From the NCBI GenBank assembly GCA_023135165.1, contig JAGLTS010000005.1:2745-66744 (forward strand): a stretch of 64,000 nucleotides of DNA, written 5' to 3'. The position numbers were made by a program, and so were the translations under genes. Positions 4,881-34,500 of the stretch are shown here, piece by piece (the first letter of the stretch is position 1; every line of letters begins with the position of its first letter). The notes under the pieces are model-generated. The model did not search any database and had not been told where the DNA came from. It saw only the letters and a program-made list of their open reading frames with translations. Source of the stretch: Phycisphaerales bacterium. Lineage in GTDB: Bacteria > Planctomycetota > Phycisphaerae > Phycisphaerales > JAGLTS01.

Positions 4881-5149
4881 CCGCGGATCTCGAATGTGGT
4901 GAACTCGCCCGTTGCGGGCTGATGCGTGATGTCGGCATCGGTGATGTTGCCGCGCATCTGGTCAGCGATCTCGTCGAGAAACGCCTGGAGTGCCCGATCC
5001 TCACCCTCAGCAACGAGCAGGACCGAGCCGTCCGCTTCGTTGCGGACCCACCCGGTGACGTCATGACCGCGTGAGATGGACTGCGTTGTAGCGCGGAAGA
5101 AGACGCCCTGAACCCTTCCGCTGTATCGAATCGTCGCGCGCGTGGCCAT
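4877..5149 (-). CDS. acyP: acylphosphatase
   Basis: 90 aa. Signature loop YSGRVQGVFFRATT, then GWVRNEADGSVLLVAEGE; typical length. Confidence 0.9.
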   Translation of the reverse strand: MATRATIRYSGRVQGVFFRATTQSISRGHDVTGWVRNEADGSVLLVAEGEDRALQAFLDEIADQMRGNITDADITHQPATGEFTTFEIRG

Positions 5150-5265
5150 GCCTGGATTAGAGCAGATTGCGCGAAGCCGGGCGAACGGGCGACATGGGGC
5201 TACCAGAGTCCGAGGCGCTGCAGTGCGCCGTCGAGGATGTCGCGCGAGATGTCCTCATCGCCGAG
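5021..5265. repeat. segmental duplication, copy A (5' half of acyP + intergenic + 3' end of upstream ORF)
   Basis: Near-identical by eye to 7931..8240, e.g. gtgagatggactgcgttgtagcgcggaagaagacgcc, cctggattagagcagattgc and taccagagtccgaggcgctgcagtgcgccgtcgaggatgtcgcgcgagatg in both. Copy B carries an extra ~65 bp. Confidence 0.85.
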
Positions 5266-5370
5266 CAGGCTTTTCTGGATGTGTTGGTGATGCGCTGCGA
5301 GCAGCGGGTCCGGCGCTTCGCCATAGACATGCTCGGTCTGGCGGTAGGCGTTGTCGAAATCGTCAGCCAT
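5200..5370 (-). CDS. hypothetical small protein whose C-terminus lies inside the duplicated segment
   Basis: 56 aa from ATG at 5370, with GGGAGA 6 nt upstream. The last ~20 aa (ISRDILDGALQRLGLW) match the C-terminus of the 8174..8587 lipoprotein. The longer track ORF (to 5424) would run into a 14-bp hairpin. Confidence 0.35.
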   Translation of the reverse strand: MADDFDNAYRQTEHVYGEAPDPLLAAHHQHIQKSLLGDEDISRDILDGALQRLGLW

Positions 5371-7782: not shown

Positions 7783-8059
7783 CTACGCGAAGCGGATATC
7801 GAAGGCATCGAACTCGCGCTCGGAGGGATCCTTCACGATCCTGCGATCTTGGATGTACTCGGACAAAGCCTCGTCGATGTTGTCGAGGAAAGCCTCAACT
7901 TCGCCTTCGTTGCCTTCCGCCACAAGCAGCACCGAGCCGTCCGGATCGTTGCGGACCCACCCGGTAACGTCGTGGCCGCGTGAGATGGACTGCGTTGTAG
8001 CGCGGAAGAAGACGCCTTTGGACCCTTCCGCTGTATCGAATCGTCGCGCGCGTAGCCAT
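7783..8059 (-). pseudogene. second acylphosphatase copy disrupted by a 1-nt insertion (or assembly error)
   Basis: ATG at 8059 encodes MATRATIRYSGRVQ as in acyP, then the frame shifts near 8017-8021 (copy A gacgccCTGAaccc versus copy B gacgccTTTGGaccc). The remainder GVFFRATTQSISRGHDVTGWVRNDPDGSVLLVAEG continues in the frame of track ORF 7783..8124. The catalytic VxGxVQGVxFR loop is split. Confidence 0.55.
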
Positions 8060-8240
8060 GCCTGGATTAGAGCAGATTGCACGAGACCGGGCGAACGGAT
8101 GAATGGGGACGGTGGGTCCGCCACGGGCGGATTTCGCTTCGCTCAAGGTTGTGGGGCTGTGGGGGTGTGGGGGTTACCAGAGTCCGAGGCGCTGCAGTGC
8201 GCCGTCGAGGATGTCGCGCGAGATGACCTCATCGCCGAGT
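7931..8240. repeat. segmental duplication, copy B
   Basis: Matches 5021..5265. Contains a ~65-bp insertion (about 8108-8172) with a GGCGGA/TCCGCC hairpin and GT-GGGGG repeats. Confidence 0.85.
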
Positions 8241-8587
8241 AAGCCTGTCTGAATGACGACGCGGCTTCCACCTTGGCACCTGGTGATCGTGATGCGGACG
8301 GTGCGGTCCGCGCTCTTGCCGGTGATCTTGGCTTCGCCTGCGGTGACGCGGTGTGACATAACAGCGTAGCCCATGGCGCGGATGGTCTCGGTGAAGGCTG
8401 CGGCGACCGTTGGGGGATCACGCCTGATCTCGGCTGCGAGCTGACCGGTGGCGAGGTAGGGCGCCTCGATGCCGGACCAGCCGTGGCGATCGCTGGAAAG
8501 CTCACATCCGATAAGGAGAGAGCCTGCGAGCAGGCAGGTGAACGCAAGATGAACGAGTCGGACCAGGTGCATGGGCGGTGCGGGCAT
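8174..8587 (-). CDS. putative lipoprotein
   Basis: 137 aa. Signal peptide with lipobox-like LLIGC (LAFTCLLAGSLLIGCELSS). Small globular remainder. C-terminus duplicated at 5200..5265. Confidence 0.65.
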   Translation of the reverse strand: MPAPPMHLVRLVHLAFTCLLAGSLLIGCELSSDRHGWSGIEAPYLATGQLAAEIRRDPPTVAAAFTETIRAMGYAVMSHRVTAGEAKITGKSADRTVRITITRCQGGSRVVIQTGLLGDEVISRDILDGALQRLGLW

Positions 8588-12677: not shown

Positions 12678-12952
12678 GTGATGAGATTGCCCATCCGCAC
12701 GCCCACCACACACGAGAGCGCGCCATCTCATCACAGTCAGCACACTTGCCCGGAGAACCTCGCCTTGCCAGGCGAGGCTGTGACGTGCGCGCAGCGGAGG
12801 AAATCCTAACCGAGTTCGTCACACATGAGATTGCATCATCCCATCACAGCCCCGCGTGGCAACGCGGGGTTCGCTTCCTGTGAGCGCACTTGCCCGAAGA
12901 ACCCCGCCTCGCCAAGCGCGGTTGTGATGTGCGCGCAGCGGATCAAACCGAG
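12678..12952. repeat. intergenic repeat region with two ~70-nt direct repeats and embedded hairpins
   Basis: Core 1 (12739-12813) is agcacacttgcccggagaacctcgccttgccaggcgaggctgtgacgtgcgcgcagcggag. Core 2 (12884-12952) is agcgcacttgcccgaagaaccccgcctcgccaagcgcggttgtgatgtgcgcgcagcggat. Hairpins: CCTCGCC-N6-GGCGAGG (12758-12777), CCCCGCG-N6-CGCGGGG (12850-12869), and a 10-bp inverted repeat GTGATGAGAT/ATCTCATCAC (12678-12687 / 12725-12734). Confidence 0.7.
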
Positions 12953-30680: not shown

Positions 30681-31421
30681 TCAGTTGCTTCCGGTCGGCG
30701 GGAAGCGGATCTCGTTGCCGTCGTCGGTGTAGAAGACGACGCCGCTGATCGTCATCGCCAGCCCGCCGCTCTGGTCAGGTTCCATCTCAAGGACCGCGTA
30801 ACCGGTCCCTTGCGAGAACTGAACCATGGCCGGAGTGAGAACCACCTGGGTGCCCGGCTGCTGTCCGAACATCGCCAGCCCGGCGCGCTGCCTTGCCTGG
30901 TCGGTCAGGTCGATGCCGCAACTGTAGTAGTCGCCGTACTCGCCATTCAGCTCTTGACCGAATGCGATGATCTGCTCGTCGGTGACGTTTGCGCGCACGT
31001 TCGGCGAGAGCACCTGACGGGCACCGGCCACATCACCTGACATGGCGGCCTGGATGAACTGCCCACCCGTCTCGTACATGCCCCGCATCACAAGCCAGCC
31101 GAACCAGATAACGAGGCACCACCCGATCGTGATGAGCAGGCCCAGGATGATCCCAGCCGCGGCGATGCCCTTGCCCTTGCGCCGGCCCCTCGACGCACCG
31201 ATCGTCAGGAAAGCGACGATCCCAAGGAAGATGCCGATCACCTGCAGAACGATCGGACAACAGAAGATGAGCGAGCAGACAACCGAGGCGATGGCGAGCT
31301 TGCTCGTGCGGGGCGGCCCCTGAACCGCGTCGAGCGGCGCGGCGTCGGGCTGCCAAGGCTCGAACGGAACATCTTGCTGGTAGGGGTTCTTGCTCATGCC
31401 GGGCATGATACGGCGTCGCAC
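30681..31421 (-). CDS. DUF4190-like membrane protein
   Basis: Two TM helices (LAIASVVCSLIFCCPIVLQVIGIFLGIVAFL, AAAGIILGLLITIGWCLVIWF) followed by a soluble domain. Start ambiguous: ATG at 31421, 31406 or 31397. Confidence 0.6.
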   Translation of the reverse strand: MRRRIMPGMSKNPYQQDVPFEPWQPDAAPLDAVQGPPRTSKLAIASVVCSLIFCCPIVLQVIGIFLGIVAFLTIGASRGRRKGKGIAAAGIILGLLITIGWCLVIWFGWLVMRGMYETGGQFIQAAMSGDVAGARQVLSPNVRANVTDEQIIAFGQELNGEYGDYYSCGIDLTDQARQRAGLAMFGQQPGTQVVLTPAMVQFSQGTGYAVLEMEPDQSGGLAMTISGVVFYTDDGNEIRFPPTGSN

Positions 31422-31560: not shown

Positions 31561-31644
31561 GGCCGTGTGCCAGAGTGGACTAATGGGGCGGATTGCAAAT
31601 CCGCTGGGCTTTGCCCGTCGTGGGTTCGAATCCCACCGCGGCCT
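31561..31644 (+). tRNA. tRNA-Cys (anticodon GCA) with a long, class-II-like variable arm
   Basis: Manual cloverleaf. Acceptor GGCCGTG/CGCGGCC. D-arm CCA(G)..(A)TGG with GG in the loop. Anticodon stem GCGGA/TCCGC with loop TTGCAAA. 15-nt variable region TGGGCTTTGCCCGTC (GGGC/GCCC stem). T-arm GTGGG-TTCGAAT-CCCAC. Discriminator T. No encoded CCA. Confidence 0.8.
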
Positions 31645-31680: not shown

Positions 31681-33936
31681 ATGCTCGTTCGCTATGCCAT
31701 CTTGACGCGCTGGGCGCACTTCGCCACACGTCGACCGAGGATGATCGTCGTCTGCTCGCTGCTCCTCGCCGTCGCCGCGATGGCGGTCACAGCCAACCGG
31801 CTTGAGTTCCATACGGATCGGTCGGATCTGATCGATCCCGGGCTGAACTGGCAGAAGCGATACGCAGCATACAAGACGACGTTCCCGCACTGGGATGATC
31901 TGATCGTCGTTGTCGATGCCTCGCAGGACGGGGCGGAGGTGTTCGCGGATCGGCTGGCGAATCGGCTGCGCAGCGATGCGCTTGTGGCGTCGGTAAACAA
32001 CGGGTTCGCGACCGCAGAGAGCCCGCCGGGGCTGCTGCTGAGTCAGCCGACTGAGGTGATCGAGACACTTGTCGCGGATGGCGGCGCCGGGCTGACCGAT
32101 GCGCAGCACACCGAATGGCAACACCTGCGAACCGCGACCGGCCGATACATCCTGCTCAAGGTCGACGGCGCCGCCGCACGGACCGACGAGGCGCTCCTTG
32201 AGGCCGTGCGCGATCACCTGACGGCGGTGCGCAGCGATCCGGCGATTGCGCACATCGAGGCAGGCGTGACGGGCGTGCCTGCGATGGAGATGGATGAGAG
32301 CGCCCAGTCGATTCGCGATTCGACGTTCGCCTCTGTCGCGGCGCTGCTGCTGATCGCGCTCCTTGCGGCTGTCGTGTATCGCGGCGTCACCGTGCCGATC
32401 CTGGCGGTCGTCTCGCTTCTCGTGGGCGTGGCGTGGTCATTTGGATACCTGACGATCGTCGTCGGGCACCTGCAGCTCCTGTCGGTCGTCTTCGCGGTGA
32501 TCCTGCTCGGCCTGGGCATCGACACAGCGATTCACCTCATCGCAAGACTGGAACTGATCCACCCGGACCACGATCACCTCGGGCCTGCCGTCGAACAGGT
32601 CTTCCGCGGCATCGGGCCGGGCGTGCTGACGGGGACGCTGACGACAGCTGCCGCGTTCGTCGCCACGGGCCTGACGGACTTCCGAGGCATCGCTGAGATG
32701 GGTCTGATCGCAGCGGGAGGCGTGATCCTCTGCGCCATCGCCGTGATGTCGGTGTTTCCAGCGCTCCTGCAACTGATGCCGCATCCCGAGCGCCGTCTTC
32801 GCGCGCGGCGAGGCGGCGAAGCCCGGCCGTTCATGCGGGGCAAGCTCTCGATCCTGACCAGCCATGCACGCACGACGGTGATCGTCGCCGCGATCGTGTT
32901 CGCCGGGCTGGGATACGCAGCGACGACCGTGCGCTACGACCCGGATGTGCTGAAGCTGCAGCCGGATGGGCTTGAATCAGTCGTGTGGGAACGGCGGCTG
33001 CTCGATGATGATGCGCGTTCATTCTGGCATGCTGTGGTCATCGCGGGCAACGTGGACCAGGCGCGTCGGCTGACGGGAAGTCTCACAGCGCTTCCCGAGG
33101 TGGACCACGTAGGCGGCGCGGGTGTGCTCTTCCCCGAGGAGGCGCAGGCAAAACGCGACCTGCTCGCCGCGCTGCCCGCCCCGCTGCACCTGCTGGCGAG
33201 CGCACCGCTTCCGACGCCCGAGGATCTGCCCGCTTCGCTGCGCGATGAGTTTGTCGCAACGGATGGGTCGCTTCTGCTGCGCGCATATCCGACGCAAGGC
33301 GAAGGCAGCATGTTGTCACCGGAGCAGCTCGACCCGTTCGTCAAAGCGGTGCTCGACGCTGCGCCGCAGGCCACGGGCCCGGCTGTGCAGATCTACGAAT
33401 CGACGCGGATCATCACACGCTCGTACCTATTCGCGGCGATCTACGCAGCGGGCGCGATTCTGATCCTGCTGGTCATCGACTTCCGATCGGCATGGGATGC
33501 GCTGACCGCGATGCTGCCCGTCTGCCTCGGCTTTGTCGGGACGTTCGGCATCATGGCTTTGACCGATACGCCGCTGAATTTCGCCAACGTGATGGTGATG
33601 CCTTTGATCCTCGGACTTGGTGTCGATGCGGGCGTTCACGCGGTGCATCGTTGGCTGATGCAGCCGGACGACCGGCCGCGCGGCCTAGCGGGGGGCACGG
33701 GGCGGGCCGTCACGCTCACGACGATCACGACGGCGATCGGTTTCGCATGCATGATGACCGCACAGCACCGGGGCATTCAGTCGCTCGGCTTTGTCATGGT
33801 CATCGCGCTCGTGTTGACGTGGTGTGCGACGGTGTTTGTGTTGCCGAGCGTGTTGGCGCTTCGGCCCGACCCGCGCAACCGTCCCGGCCGGCGCTGGCAG
33901 GTCGCTCATCCGCCGAAGTCGCCGGAGCTGTCATGA
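31681..33936 (+). CDS. MMPL/RND-superfamily (HpnN-like) transporter
   Basis: 751 aa from ATG at 31681; the track ORF from 31390 reads through the tRNA. Two 6-TM bundles with large periplasmic loops, including FASVAALLLIALLAAVVY ... LGLGIDTAIHL and PLILGLGVDAGVHAVHR. Confidence 0.8.
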   Translation: MLVRYAILTRWAHFATRRPRMIVVCSLLLAVAAMAVTANRLEFHTDRSDLIDPGLNWQKRYAAYKTTFPHWDDLIVVVDASQDGAEVFADRLANRLRSDALVASVNNGFATAESPPGLLLSQPTEVIETLVADGGAGLTDAQHTEWQHLRTATGRYILLKVDGAAARTDEALLEAVRDHLTAVRSDPAIAHIEAGVTGVPAMEMDESAQSIRDSTFASVAALLLIALLAAVVYRGVTVPILAVVSLLVGVAWSFGYLTIVVGHLQLLSVVFAVILLGLGIDTAIHLIARLELIHPDHDHLGPAVEQVFRGIGPGVLTGTLTTAAAFVATGLTDFRGIAEMGLIAAGGVILCAIAVMSVFPALLQLMPHPERRLRARRGGEARPFMRGKLSILTSHARTTVIVAAIVFAGLGYAATTVRYDPDVLKLQPDGLESVVWERRLLDDDARSFWHAVVIAGNVDQARRLTGSLTALPEVDHVGGAGVLFPEEAQAKRDLLAALPAPLHLLASAPLPTPEDLPASLRDEFVATDGSLLLRAYPTQGEGSMLSPEQLDPFVKAVLDAAPQATGPAVQIYESTRIITRSYLFAAIYAAGAILILLVIDFRSAWDALTAMLPVCLGFVGTFGIMALTDTPLNFANVMVMPLILGLGVDAGVHAVHRWLMQPDDRPRGLAGGTGRAVTLTTITTAIGFACMMTAQHRGIQSLGFVMVIALVLTWCATVFVLPSVLALRPDPRNRPGRRWQVAHPPKSPELS

Positions 33937-34500
33937 TCGTTCCGCCTGGCGCTCCTGCTTGCGGACACGGCGGCGCTCGCGGAAAAAGGCTTTGAGCTGC
34001 GCGGAGGCGTGCCGAGCCATGAGGCCGCCGATGGGCGTGATGCGGTGGTTGAGCCTCTGGTCTTCGCAAAGCCTGTACAGCGACGCGACCGCCCCCGCCT
34101 TGGGGTCGTGCGCGCCGTAGACGAGCCTGCCGAGCCGGGCGTTGACGATGGCGCCTGCACACATGATGCACGGCTCAAGCGTGACGACGAGCGTGCATTC
34201 GGTCAGTCGCCAGTCGCCGATGCGCTTGGCGGCGGCGGCGATCACCGTTATCTCGGCGTGACCGGCCGGGTCGCGCCTCGCCTCGCGCGTGTTGTGCGCC
34301 TCGGCGAGGATCTCCGCATCGTCACCATCGCCCCGGTAAACAACCGCACCGACGGGCACCTCGCCCTCGTCCGCTGCCTTCTGAGCAAGACGCAAGGCGG
34401 TCCGCATCATGCGACGGTCGGTCACGGTGGCCGTCCGGCGCTCCCCGTTGCGTGCCCGCAGCGCGAGCCGCAGCGCGCGATGCCTGCGGAGGCGCATCAT
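33931..34500 (-). CDS. tadA: tRNA adenosine(34) deaminase
   Basis: Motifs HAEITVI and TLEPCIMCAGAI (CMP/dCMP deaminase zinc site). The ATG at 34500 forms an ATGA overlap with the tatC stop. Confidence 0.88.
   Translation of the reverse strand: MMRLRRHRALRLALRARNGERRTATVTDRRMMRTALRLAQKAADEGEVPVGAVVYRGDGDDAEILAEAHNTREARRDPAGHAEITVIAAAAKRIGDWRLTECTLVVTLEPCIMCAGAIVNARLGRLVYGAHDPKAGAVASLYRLCEDQRLNHRITPIGGLMARHASAQLKAFFRERRRVRKQERQAERS

Follow-up and report, generated by a model that had tools for sequence, protein, structure and literature searches.

A tRNA-Cys with a class-II-type variable arm in a Phycisphaerales bacterium, and the short-loop orthologues of its family

According to the standard account, long variable arms occur in bacteria only in tRNA-Leu, tRNA-Ser, tRNA-Tyr and the selenocysteine tRNA (tRNA-Sec). 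The nearest published relative, in concept, of the molecule discussed here is the selC* tRNA-Cys, which has a long arm and is cysteinylated by cysteinyl-tRNA synthetase (CysRS) (Mukai et al. 2017, PMC5389517). As for the other synthetases, seryl-tRNA synthetase (SerRS) relies on the long variable arm, and U73 is tolerated in some allo-tRNAs (PMC5389517), while among the elements of ordinary tRNA-Cys the G15:G48 pair is a determinant for the E. coli and H. influenzae CysRS that is conserved in few species only (PMC9976931). Here we describe a tRNA-Cys gene with a long variable arm on a plain 7/5 branch, i.e. seven base pairs (bp) in the acceptor stem and five in the T stem, which lies in a stretch of 64,000 nucleotides (nt) from a Phycisphaerales bacterium (GenBank assembly GCA_023135165.1, contig JAGLTS010000005.1, positions 2,745 to 66,744 of the forward strand). 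This whole stretch is called the window in what follows, and positions are counted from its first letter.

The window holds a genuine tRNA gene in which cysteine identity elements are combined with a class-II shape. In particular, ARAGORN calls a tRNA-Cys(gca) of 84 nt on the forward strand at 31561-31644, the sole tRNA it finds in the 64 kb, and the Rfam tRNA model RF00005 matches it over its full length (1-71) with 54.9 bits (E=4.4e-09), well above the gathering score of 29 bits, with 11 surplus bases placed into the variable region. A preliminary description, made by reading the letters alone, had arrived at the same coordinates, and the possibility raised there that a covariance model would expose a pseudo-tRNA did not materialize. 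What is more, direct reading of the sequence returns the fold proposed at that stage, with its 7/5 branch, the anticodon loop UUGCAAA and U73, as well as a 15-nt variable region with its own GGGC/GCCC stem, which we find to be closed by a UUU loop. It was equally right in naming GCA and the discriminator U as CysRS identity elements, on the evidence of the sequence and of ARAGORN, and in noting that no CCA is encoded, TTCCG following directly at the 3' end. The 15-nt variable region with a 4-bp stem-loop exceeds the 10 nt that mark class II. The D arm, for its part, had been likened to those of tRNA-Tyr, -Leu and -Ser; its structure is indeed of this kind (a 3-bp stem, a G13·A22 mismatch and an enlarged loop of 11 nt), but such a D arm is not exclusive to class II and is therefore not diagnostic of it. 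In the minimum-energy structure of RNAfold (-39.2 kcal/mol), the stems of the acceptor, the anticodon arm and the T arm are present, as is the GGGC/GCCC stem of the variable arm. Relative to shuffled sequences, z is only -1.98, so that the single-sequence fold, taken alone, is weak evidence, and the weight of the argument falls on the homologues.

How widespread is this architecture? We scanned one genome per species for the cysteine anticodon stem-loop with a long variable region downstream of it (GGATTGCAAATCC, 14-30 bases, GGTTCRANTCC), which returned at least 119 matching stretches, approximately 113 of them from metagenome-assembled genomes (MAGs) labelled Phycisphaerales, Phycisphaeraceae or Planctomycetota. 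On these stretches ARAGORN calls at least 113 full-length long-arm tRNA-Cys genes, 86 of them distinct. Each of the 86 has an acceptor stem of 7, a D stem of 3, an anticodon stem of 5 and a T stem of 5 bp, with Watson-Crick or G-U pairs at 20 of 20 positions. U73 is found in all members of the family, none of which encodes CCA; their D loop measures 11 nt throughout, and their variable region 12-18 nt. The variable arm consists of a 2-5 bp stem followed by 2-4, mostly 3, unpaired 3' bases, and its loop is usually GNRA, in place of the UUU of the window tRNA. U8, A14, G15, G18, G19, C48, U54-U55-C56 and A58 are invariant in the family alignment.

Covariation in this family was assessed on a 52-sequence alignment with 24 pairs, against 500 shuffles and against alignments in which the partner was slid by 1-3 columns. 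Here, 98.4% of the pair cells are paired, and 14 of the 24 pairs have changed on both sides (5 of the 7 acceptor, 2 of the 3 D-stem, 3 of the 5 T-stem and all 4 variable-stem pairs). In the D stem, for example, pair 12-23 is found as AU, CG and UA, and pair 10-25 as CG and, once, GC. The covariation score is 0.280, as compared to 0.084 in the shuffles, none of which reach the observed value, and to no more than 0.054 with a slid partner. Since 86 distinct homologues combine full pairing with covariation, the family is more than a product of chance. For the same reason, the reading of the window gene as a pseudogene or a chance tRNA-like sequence, which could appeal to the modest fold z-score and to a scan of the tRNA strand that detected neither a strong sigma-70 promoter nor an intrinsic terminator beside the gene, is effectively refuted by perfect stems and compensatory changes across these variants, by the Rfam score and by the presence of every universal tertiary nucleotide, and we give it next to no credence. 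As a separate observation, positions 9 and 13 change together, A9 always occurring with A13 (8 sequences, with A13·A22) and G9 with G13 (78 sequences); a 9-13-22 base triple would fit this pattern, although one or a few events may be all that it reflects.

Long-arm tRNA-Cys is a clade-specific architecture, and within its lineage it is not universal. The second half of this statement comes from a further scan, this time of metagenome contigs and with either loop length allowed (GAGTGGNNNAANGGNNNGGATTGCAAATCC, 8-30 bases, GGTTCGAATCC). Among the at least 120 loci that it returned, 87 carry a gene with a 5-nt variable loop (6-nt in two) and 33 a long-arm gene; on contigs with a guanine-cytosine (GC) content of at least 0.5, there are 30 of each among the matches listed. 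The 30 short-loop genes in question, on contigs of GC 0.50-0.71, are near-identical to long-arm genes save for the hairpin. A matched pair illustrates this best: the short-loop gene L213 reads UCCGU UAUUC GUGGG where the long-arm gene L107 reads UCCGU U[UGGCGAAAGCCA]GUC GUGGG, and the rest is equal. What is more, many Phycisphaerales genomes with a long-arm gene have the order nuoH (+), secreted hypothetical protein (-), tRNA-Cys (+), moxR, and the same order is seen at the short-loop loci L300, L232, L312 and L222, as well as at L320-L323 (the MAG 'Phycisphaerae bacterium' GCA_037139735.1 and relatives), where the tRNA-Cys is 74 nt long. The named NuoH relatives of L300 belong to Phycisphaerae, Phycisphaerales and Tepidisphaera. 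Near-identical genes in a common nuoH-moxR neighbourhood imply that the long-arm and short-loop forms are positional orthologues, a statement that holds at the level of the family, the window's own locus lying outside that comparison. The suggestion, made at the outset, of a clade-specific architecture consequently stands as far as the at least 113 covarying genomes are concerned, but not as a property of all Phycisphaerae, some of which carry an arm-less orthologue at the same locus. Our own view of the arm as a clade-wide norm was dropped at this point: the first scan, with its gap of at least 14 nt, was blind to short-loop genes, and the metagenome scan contains both forms.

Where does the arm come from? 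Most likely, it is a hairpin in the variable loop of an ordinary tRNA-Cys, placed after nucleotide 44/45 and ahead of the last three nucleotides of that loop. Most arms have a common GC-GNRA-GC core, which suggests one origin, and arm length is structured by clade, with a large 16-nt clade and 12- and 14-nt clades. With Tepidisphaera as the root of a neighbour-joining tree of NuoH, 197 of 200 bootstraps recover the monophyly of the nuoH-linked short-loop clade, which is nested among the long-arm lineages in 161 of 200 bootstraps and sister to all of them in 39; in a neighbour-joining tree of MoxR, other short-loop loci fall in differing places. Judged by these gene trees, it is somewhat likelier that the arm was gained and then lost repeatedly. 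In the Tepidisphaera outgroup itself, there is no tRNA on the nuoH contig, which ends 1.1 kb past nuoH. A near-identical D arm is found, in addition, in many short-loop tRNA-Cys genes, including those of low-GC marine contigs, some of them clearly viral, so that a Tyr-like D arm is neither evidence of tRNA-Tyr ancestry nor a class-II diagnostic. The low-GC marine short-loop genes (GTGCAGGTGCCAGAGTGGTCTAATGGGG...) are those of L186, L188, L189, L191-L195 and approximately 57 loci among L199-L318. Of these contigs, L188 and L191 also encode transfer-messenger RNA (tmRNA), and L188 further encodes PhoH, a peptide deformylase and a viperin-like radical-SAM protein; with such genes, at least some of the low-GC contigs are phage genomes.

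Copies of the gene are encountered at several loci. Two long-arm copies stand in tandem at L067, L152 and L297, and a long-arm and a short-loop copy at L138, L158 and L224. Copies consisting of the 3' part only, from the anticodon stem onward and with identical downstream bases, are present at L062, L133, L103, L137, L149 and L178. L062 and L133 lie on the same contig (CBDCYN010000030.1), approximately 40 kb apart, and the L133 copy adjoins an open reading frame of the phage-integrase family and an IS21-type IstB gene, with a full copy on the same contig. This looks like an integrated element that uses the tRNA-Cys gene as its attachment site, a 3'-half copy beside an integrase being typical of the behaviour of tRNA genes.

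In our judgement, it is highly probable that the window gene is the ordinary working tRNA-Cys of its lineage, charged by CysRS and equipped with an extra arm that is tolerated, heritable and labile. According to this explanation, the tRNA would be transcribed, provided with CCA and charged with cysteine by the normal CysRS, which would recognize it through GCA, U73 and the pairs G1-C72, G2-C71 and C3-G70. A hairpin in the variable loop would be what turns an ordinary tRNA-Cys into a class-II-shaped one, the core of this type of tRNA-Cys (a 3-bp D stem, R13·A22 and an 11-nt D loop) presumably being able to carry it, and the window gene would be the only functional tRNA-Cys gene of its genome. 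CysRS is probably indifferent to the arm, because sister lineages use arm-less forms, as does L158 side by side with a long-arm copy in the same genome. The remaining synthetases would be kept away by established identity rules (PMC9976931, PMC5389517), which reportedly also go back to experiments of the Himeno and Asahara type. By these rules, tyrosyl- and leucyl-tRNA synthetase (TyrRS and LeuRS) should reject the molecule because of U73 and C35, and SerRS because the arm is short and oriented as in tRNA-Tyr. More than 100 species have preserved the arm, with base changes in its stem compensated, yet sister orthologues lack it; it thus behaves as a tolerated, labile add-on and not as an identity element.

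That said, several points weigh against this explanation. The body of the tRNA is approximately 80% identical to a Bacteroidota tRNA-Tyr, the same genome may carry a separate canonical tRNA-Cys elsewhere, and long and short tRNA-Cys genes stand side by side at L138, L158 and L224. Expression and charging with cysteine are deduced from sequence. What is more, the search pattern preset the anticodon stem and the T loop, whose conservation is thus partly by construction and whose constancy is uninformative. The window locus is not syntenic with the other long-arm loci, and no tRNA lies upstream of the MMPL transporter gene, the window tRNA's neighbour, in its two closest relatives (68% and 64% identity). 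Finally, the trees give no firm answer as to the direction of change (39/200 versus 161/200 bootstraps).

Long arms on tRNA-Cys are also common in phages. The first pattern matched 57 viral contigs (L003-L059), which contain 53 long-arm tRNA-Cys genes of at least 80 nt, all with GCA and U73, mostly with G10-C25, usually with an encoded CCA, and located in tRNA arrays. Like the window tRNA, they have a 7/5 branch and a variable arm (here of 10-19 nt) with, mostly, a 3-nt 3' tail; unlike it, they fall into several sequence families, none of them related to that of Phycisphaerae. Further long-arm variants, with other anticodon stems, are present at L187 and L190. Among cultured carriers are Pseudomonas phages D6 and RVTF4 and Vibrio phage D479; the gene of phage D6 (OQ363659, 18840-18923; L324, 1501-1584) scores 60.1 bits with the Rfam model and is annotated as plain 'tRNA-Cys'. 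Judging from their sequences, the phage arms look like independent acquisitions, and since unrelated phage families have one, the arm would have been added to tRNA-Cys more than once. Two further tRNA arrays, L014 (IMGVR_UViG_3300025131_011243) and L245 (CEPZ01209250.1), hold a Phycisphaerae-type long-arm tRNA-Cys without CCA together with several tRNA-Leu, and L245 also has two tRNA-Tyr and a divergent 73-nt tRNA-Cys; these may be phages of Phycisphaerae with a host-like copy. In the block 376001-384000 of the 535-kb Paracoccus sp. ME4 plasmid NZ_CP151277.1 (L173), no fewer than 17 tRNA genes are densely arrayed. This array also holds a long-arm sequence with GCA, U73, a terminal CCA and a 4-bp T stem that ARAGORN does not call, and which may be an 8/4-type tRNA as in Mukai et al.

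Could the arm be more than tolerated? One can argue that it is a selected module, repeatedly gained or kept on tRNA-Cys, given that it is seen in Phycisphaerae, in several unrelated lineages of phages, cultured jumbo phages among them, and in a phage-like tRNA array with a copy of the host type. The arm might then alter the access of proteins to the tRNA, for example as a shield against a tRNA-targeting nuclease or defence system, or by tuning the interaction with CysRS or a modification enzyme. We regard this as a tentative idea, with the odds rather against it. If true, it would be the first natural example of an orthologous bacterial tRNA in which selection drives a switch between classes I and II, and it would offer a living model of the origin of class-II tRNAs.

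A different history is alloacceptor recruitment, whereby a duplicated class-II tRNA-Tyr gene, once its anticodon GUA had become GCA and its discriminator A73 had become U73, would have been taken over by CysRS and would have supplanted the original tRNA-Cys. This was our earlier working hypothesis, and it was downgraded once the short-loop orthologues were found. Its appeal lies in the top whole-molecule matches, which are tRNA-Tyr: in the plasmid database, the best match is a tRNA-Tyr of Parabacteroides distasonis in a Thr-Tyr-Gly-Thr-tuf cluster (79.7% over positions 10-73, the arm included), and the best full-length phage matches are cyanophage tRNA-Tyr (79%). The 84-nt window tRNA has no BLAST match in E. 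coli genomes, and the D arm of some family members is identical to that of E. coli tRNA-Tyr at 16 of 17 positions. Furthermore, we compared arm architecture with 14 tRNA-Tyr, 46 tRNA-Ser and 36 tRNA-Leu from phage loci, the Paracoccus plasmid, a Halpernia locus and E. coli. The geometry of the family (approximately 1 unpaired base, 2-5 bp and 3 unpaired bases) fits tRNA-Tyr, with 3 unpaired 3' bases in all 12 that could be scored, and fits neither tRNA-Leu (1-2) nor tRNA-Ser (1). No Phycisphaerae tRNA-Tyr was present at any locus examined. Against all this, the same-locus short-loop tRNA-Cys of related Phycisphaerae differ essentially by the hairpin alone, the Tyr-like D arm is just as present in many short-loop tRNA-Cys of unrelated low-GC contigs, and recruitment would require several later losses of the arm, each of them regenerating a perfect class-I tRNA-Cys. 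The short-loop orthologues thus make a tRNA-Tyr origin unlikely, and we accord it a small probability.

Alternatively, the long-arm gene could be a second, specialized tRNA-Cys beside a canonical one, with a purpose like that of selC* and no housekeeping role. The known long-arm tRNA-Cys, selC*, is in fact accessory (PMC5389517), and adjacent long and short copies at some loci could be read in this way. Two of the three short copies in such tandems are damaged, however (an A31·C39 mismatch at L138 and an acceptor 3' strand that is one base short at L224, with L158 intact), and the long-arm gene sits at the very locus where sister lineages have their short-loop gene. A dedicated partner is not in evidence either. 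The neighbours of long-arm tRNAs elsewhere are NuoH, a hypothetical protein, MoxR and UPF0167; no aminoacyl-tRNA synthetase, elongation factor or SelB-like gene is linked to long-arm tRNA-Cys in the window or at loci of the nuoH, MoxR and UPF0167 type, no selB*, cysS* or selenium gene in the window or at other long-arm loci, and there is no cysS at any locus examined. Nor does the molecule have an unusual body, its branch being an ordinary 7/5 one with a 5-bp anticodon stem. We therefore hold an accessory role to be quite improbable.

The least tenable of the functional alternatives is a dual or altered identity, in which SerRS, or TyrRS, would charge the tRNA by way of the long arm and UGY codons would be ambiguous or reassigned. 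The preliminary description had entertained a serine identity, and one can adduce the dependence of SerRS on a long arm and its acceptance of U73 in some allo-tRNAs (PMC5389517), as well as the presence of G2-C71 and C11-G24. Several observations speak against that proposal. The tRNA-Ser arms we compared are 16-23 nt long, with 5-8 bp and 1 unpaired 3' base, and tRNA-Ser has G73, whereas the arms of the family are short and Tyr-like, at 12-18 nt with 2-5 bp and mostly 3 (2-4) unpaired bases, and U73 is invariant; C35 instead of U35 speaks against TyrRS. In the window, TGC and TGT encode the HAE...PCxxC zinc ligands of a deaminase and ferredoxin-type cysteines, and with such catalytic and metal-ligand residues encoded by TGY the code is standard. 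Finally, the tRNA-Cys of sister lineages is this very molecule with a short loop, and the arm consequently cannot define the amino acid. A changed identity is thus exceedingly improbable.

Turning to the surroundings of the gene, the features of the tRNA and its nearest neighbours are collected in Table 1; further neighbours are TatC and 2-oxoacid:ferredoxin oxidoreductase genes. The start of the MMPL gene depends on the call: the first in-frame ATG is at 31681, 36 nt past the tRNA, which is the distance given in the preliminary description, and the public assembly places the start at 31741. Neither an integrase domain nor a partial repeat of the tRNA is found near the window tRNA, as far as the integrase in line with that description. 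All MMPL homologues that bear an organism name are from Phycisphaeraceae, Phycisphaerales, Phycisphaerae or Planctomycetota, and the nearest are distant, at 68% and 64% identity. The organism is accordingly a planctomycete of the Phycisphaerae lineage, and a match to the window is contig DAOVKE010000010.1 of the MAG GCA_030631945.1. The window neighbours MMPL, DUF4190, TatC and deaminase are common to none of the approximately 113 long-arm genome loci. The TadA-like deaminase, two genes from the tRNA, is of the same family as the tRNA adenosine-34 deaminase; it runs a few bases into the ends of both the MMPL gene and the TatC gene, and the order MMPL, deaminase, TatC, sigma factor recurs in the relative L183. 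Elsewhere in the window, three adjoining families of direct repeats (of 225, 80 and 86 nt and with 73-94% identity) connect 4883-5281 with 7792-8255, approximately 2.9 kb apart, which suggests two paralogous genes or a duplicated segment. Two 68-nt copies of 84% identity, at 12736-12803 and 12880-12947 and thus 144 nt apart, each hold an inverted-repeat-like core, GCCTTGCCAGGCGAGGC.

Table 1. The tRNA-Cys gene, its structural parts and adjacent genes (window positions).
Feature	Position	Strand	Sequence, pairing or basis
Whole tRNA	31561-31644	+	GGCCGUG UG CCA GAGUGGACUAA UGG G GCGGA UUGCAAA UCCGC UGGGCUUUGCCCGUC GUGGG UUCGAAU CCCAC CGCGGCC U
Acceptor 5' strand GGCCGUG	31561-31567	+	Partner 31637-31643; G1-C72, G2-C71 and C3-G70 as in E. 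coli tRNA-Cys
D arm	31570-31586	+	3-bp stem CCA/UGG (C10-G25), G13·A22, 11-nt loop including G15, G18 and G19
Anticodon arm GCGGA-UUGCAAA-UCCGC	31588-31604	+	16 of 17 bases as in E. coli tRNA-Cys
Anticodon GCA, reads UGU/UGC	31595-31597	+	ARAGORN, anticodon at position 35
Variable arm UGGGCUUUGCCCGUC	31605-31619	+	U44, 4-bp GGGC/GCCC stem, UUU loop, tail GUC ending in C48
T arm GUGGG-UUCGAAU-CCCAC	31620-31636	+	Sequence and Rfam; double changes in 3/5 pairs
Acceptor 3' strand CGCGGCC	31637-31643	+	Sequence, Rfam and covariation
Discriminator U73	31644	+	Invariant in 86/86 homologues
DUF4190 protein	30681-31421	-	Window neighbour
MMPL/RND transporter	31741 or 31681 to 33936	+	Window neighbour
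TadA-like deaminase	33931-34500	-	HAE...PCIMC motif; window neighbour

What does a long-arm tRNA-Cys mean for the standard account given at the beginning? The arm is found here on a 7/5 tRNA-Cys, in more than 100 species, and the early impression that such a molecule is unusual was well founded. The full-text literature and the main reviews, with incomplete coverage of journals, yielded no published account of a bacterial or phage tRNA-Cys that combines a 7/5 branch with a long arm, and such a molecule is apparently undescribed. The two forms, near-identical but for the arm, provide a natural matched pair, and raise the questions of how CysRS, a class-I synthetase, handles a class-II tRNA body, of what bars SerRS, TyrRS and LeuRS from it, and of how a variable arm can be gained or lost in one step. 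Cultured systems in which to study them are at hand, namely Phycisphaera with its relatives and, among phages, Pseudomonas phage D6 in P. syringae. On the practical side, isotype classifiers and genome-completeness checks may mis-score long-arm tRNA-Cys, and an arm-bearing scaffold is possibly useful for orthogonal tRNA engineering.

It is instructive to place the molecule among the tRNAs that it most resembles, the E. coli comparison genes (cysT, tyrU and leuZ) having been taken by their coordinates. With E. coli cysT, it shares GCA, U73, the pairs G1-C72, G2-C71 and C3-G70, 16 of the 17 anticodon-arm bases, R13·A22, a 3-bp D stem and the 7/5 branch. It differs in having a 15-nt arm in place of the canonical variable loop of 4-5 nt, a D loop of 11 and not 9 nt, C10-G25 instead of A10-U25, and G15:C48 instead of G15:G48; indeed, the G15:G48 Levitt pair is absent from all long-arm family members, which have G15 with C48. 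With bacterial tRNA-Tyr, the likeness lies in the D arm CC(A/C)GAG(U/C)GGNNNAA(U/G)GG and in the build of the variable arm, in which N44 is followed by a short stem and a 3-nt tail ending in UC. The differences are GUA and A73 in tRNA-Tyr versus GCA and U73 here, together with C3-G70, and bacterial tRNA-Tyr are not known to have short-loop orthologues. The nev-tRNAs of nematodes and other non-canonical tRNAs with a variable arm (Hamashima et al., cited in PMC5389517) reportedly join a class-II shape to an anticodon of a class-I family, and are said to be eukaryotic molecules that are charged according to their Leu- or Ser-type body and mistranslate; in the window tRNA, unlike in these, the identity elements agree with the anticodon. 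Finally, the selC* tRNA-Cys resemble it in their anticodon GCA (or UCA), in U73, in the long variable arm and in being substrates of CysRS (PMC5389517). The difference is in the body and in the setting: selC* have an 8/4 branch with a bulge and longer, Sec-like anticodon and D stems, are accessory and are linked to selB* or cysS* (PMC5389517), and the window tRNA has no 8/5, 9/4, 8/4 or 9/3 branch of the tRNA-Sec, selC* or allo-tRNA kind and no 6-bp anticodon or D stem. In terms of hosts, selC* are found in Firmicutes, Thermodesulfobacteria, Nitrospirae and Proteobacteria (PMC5389517), whereas the tRNA described here is a plain 7/5 molecule of Planctomycetota.

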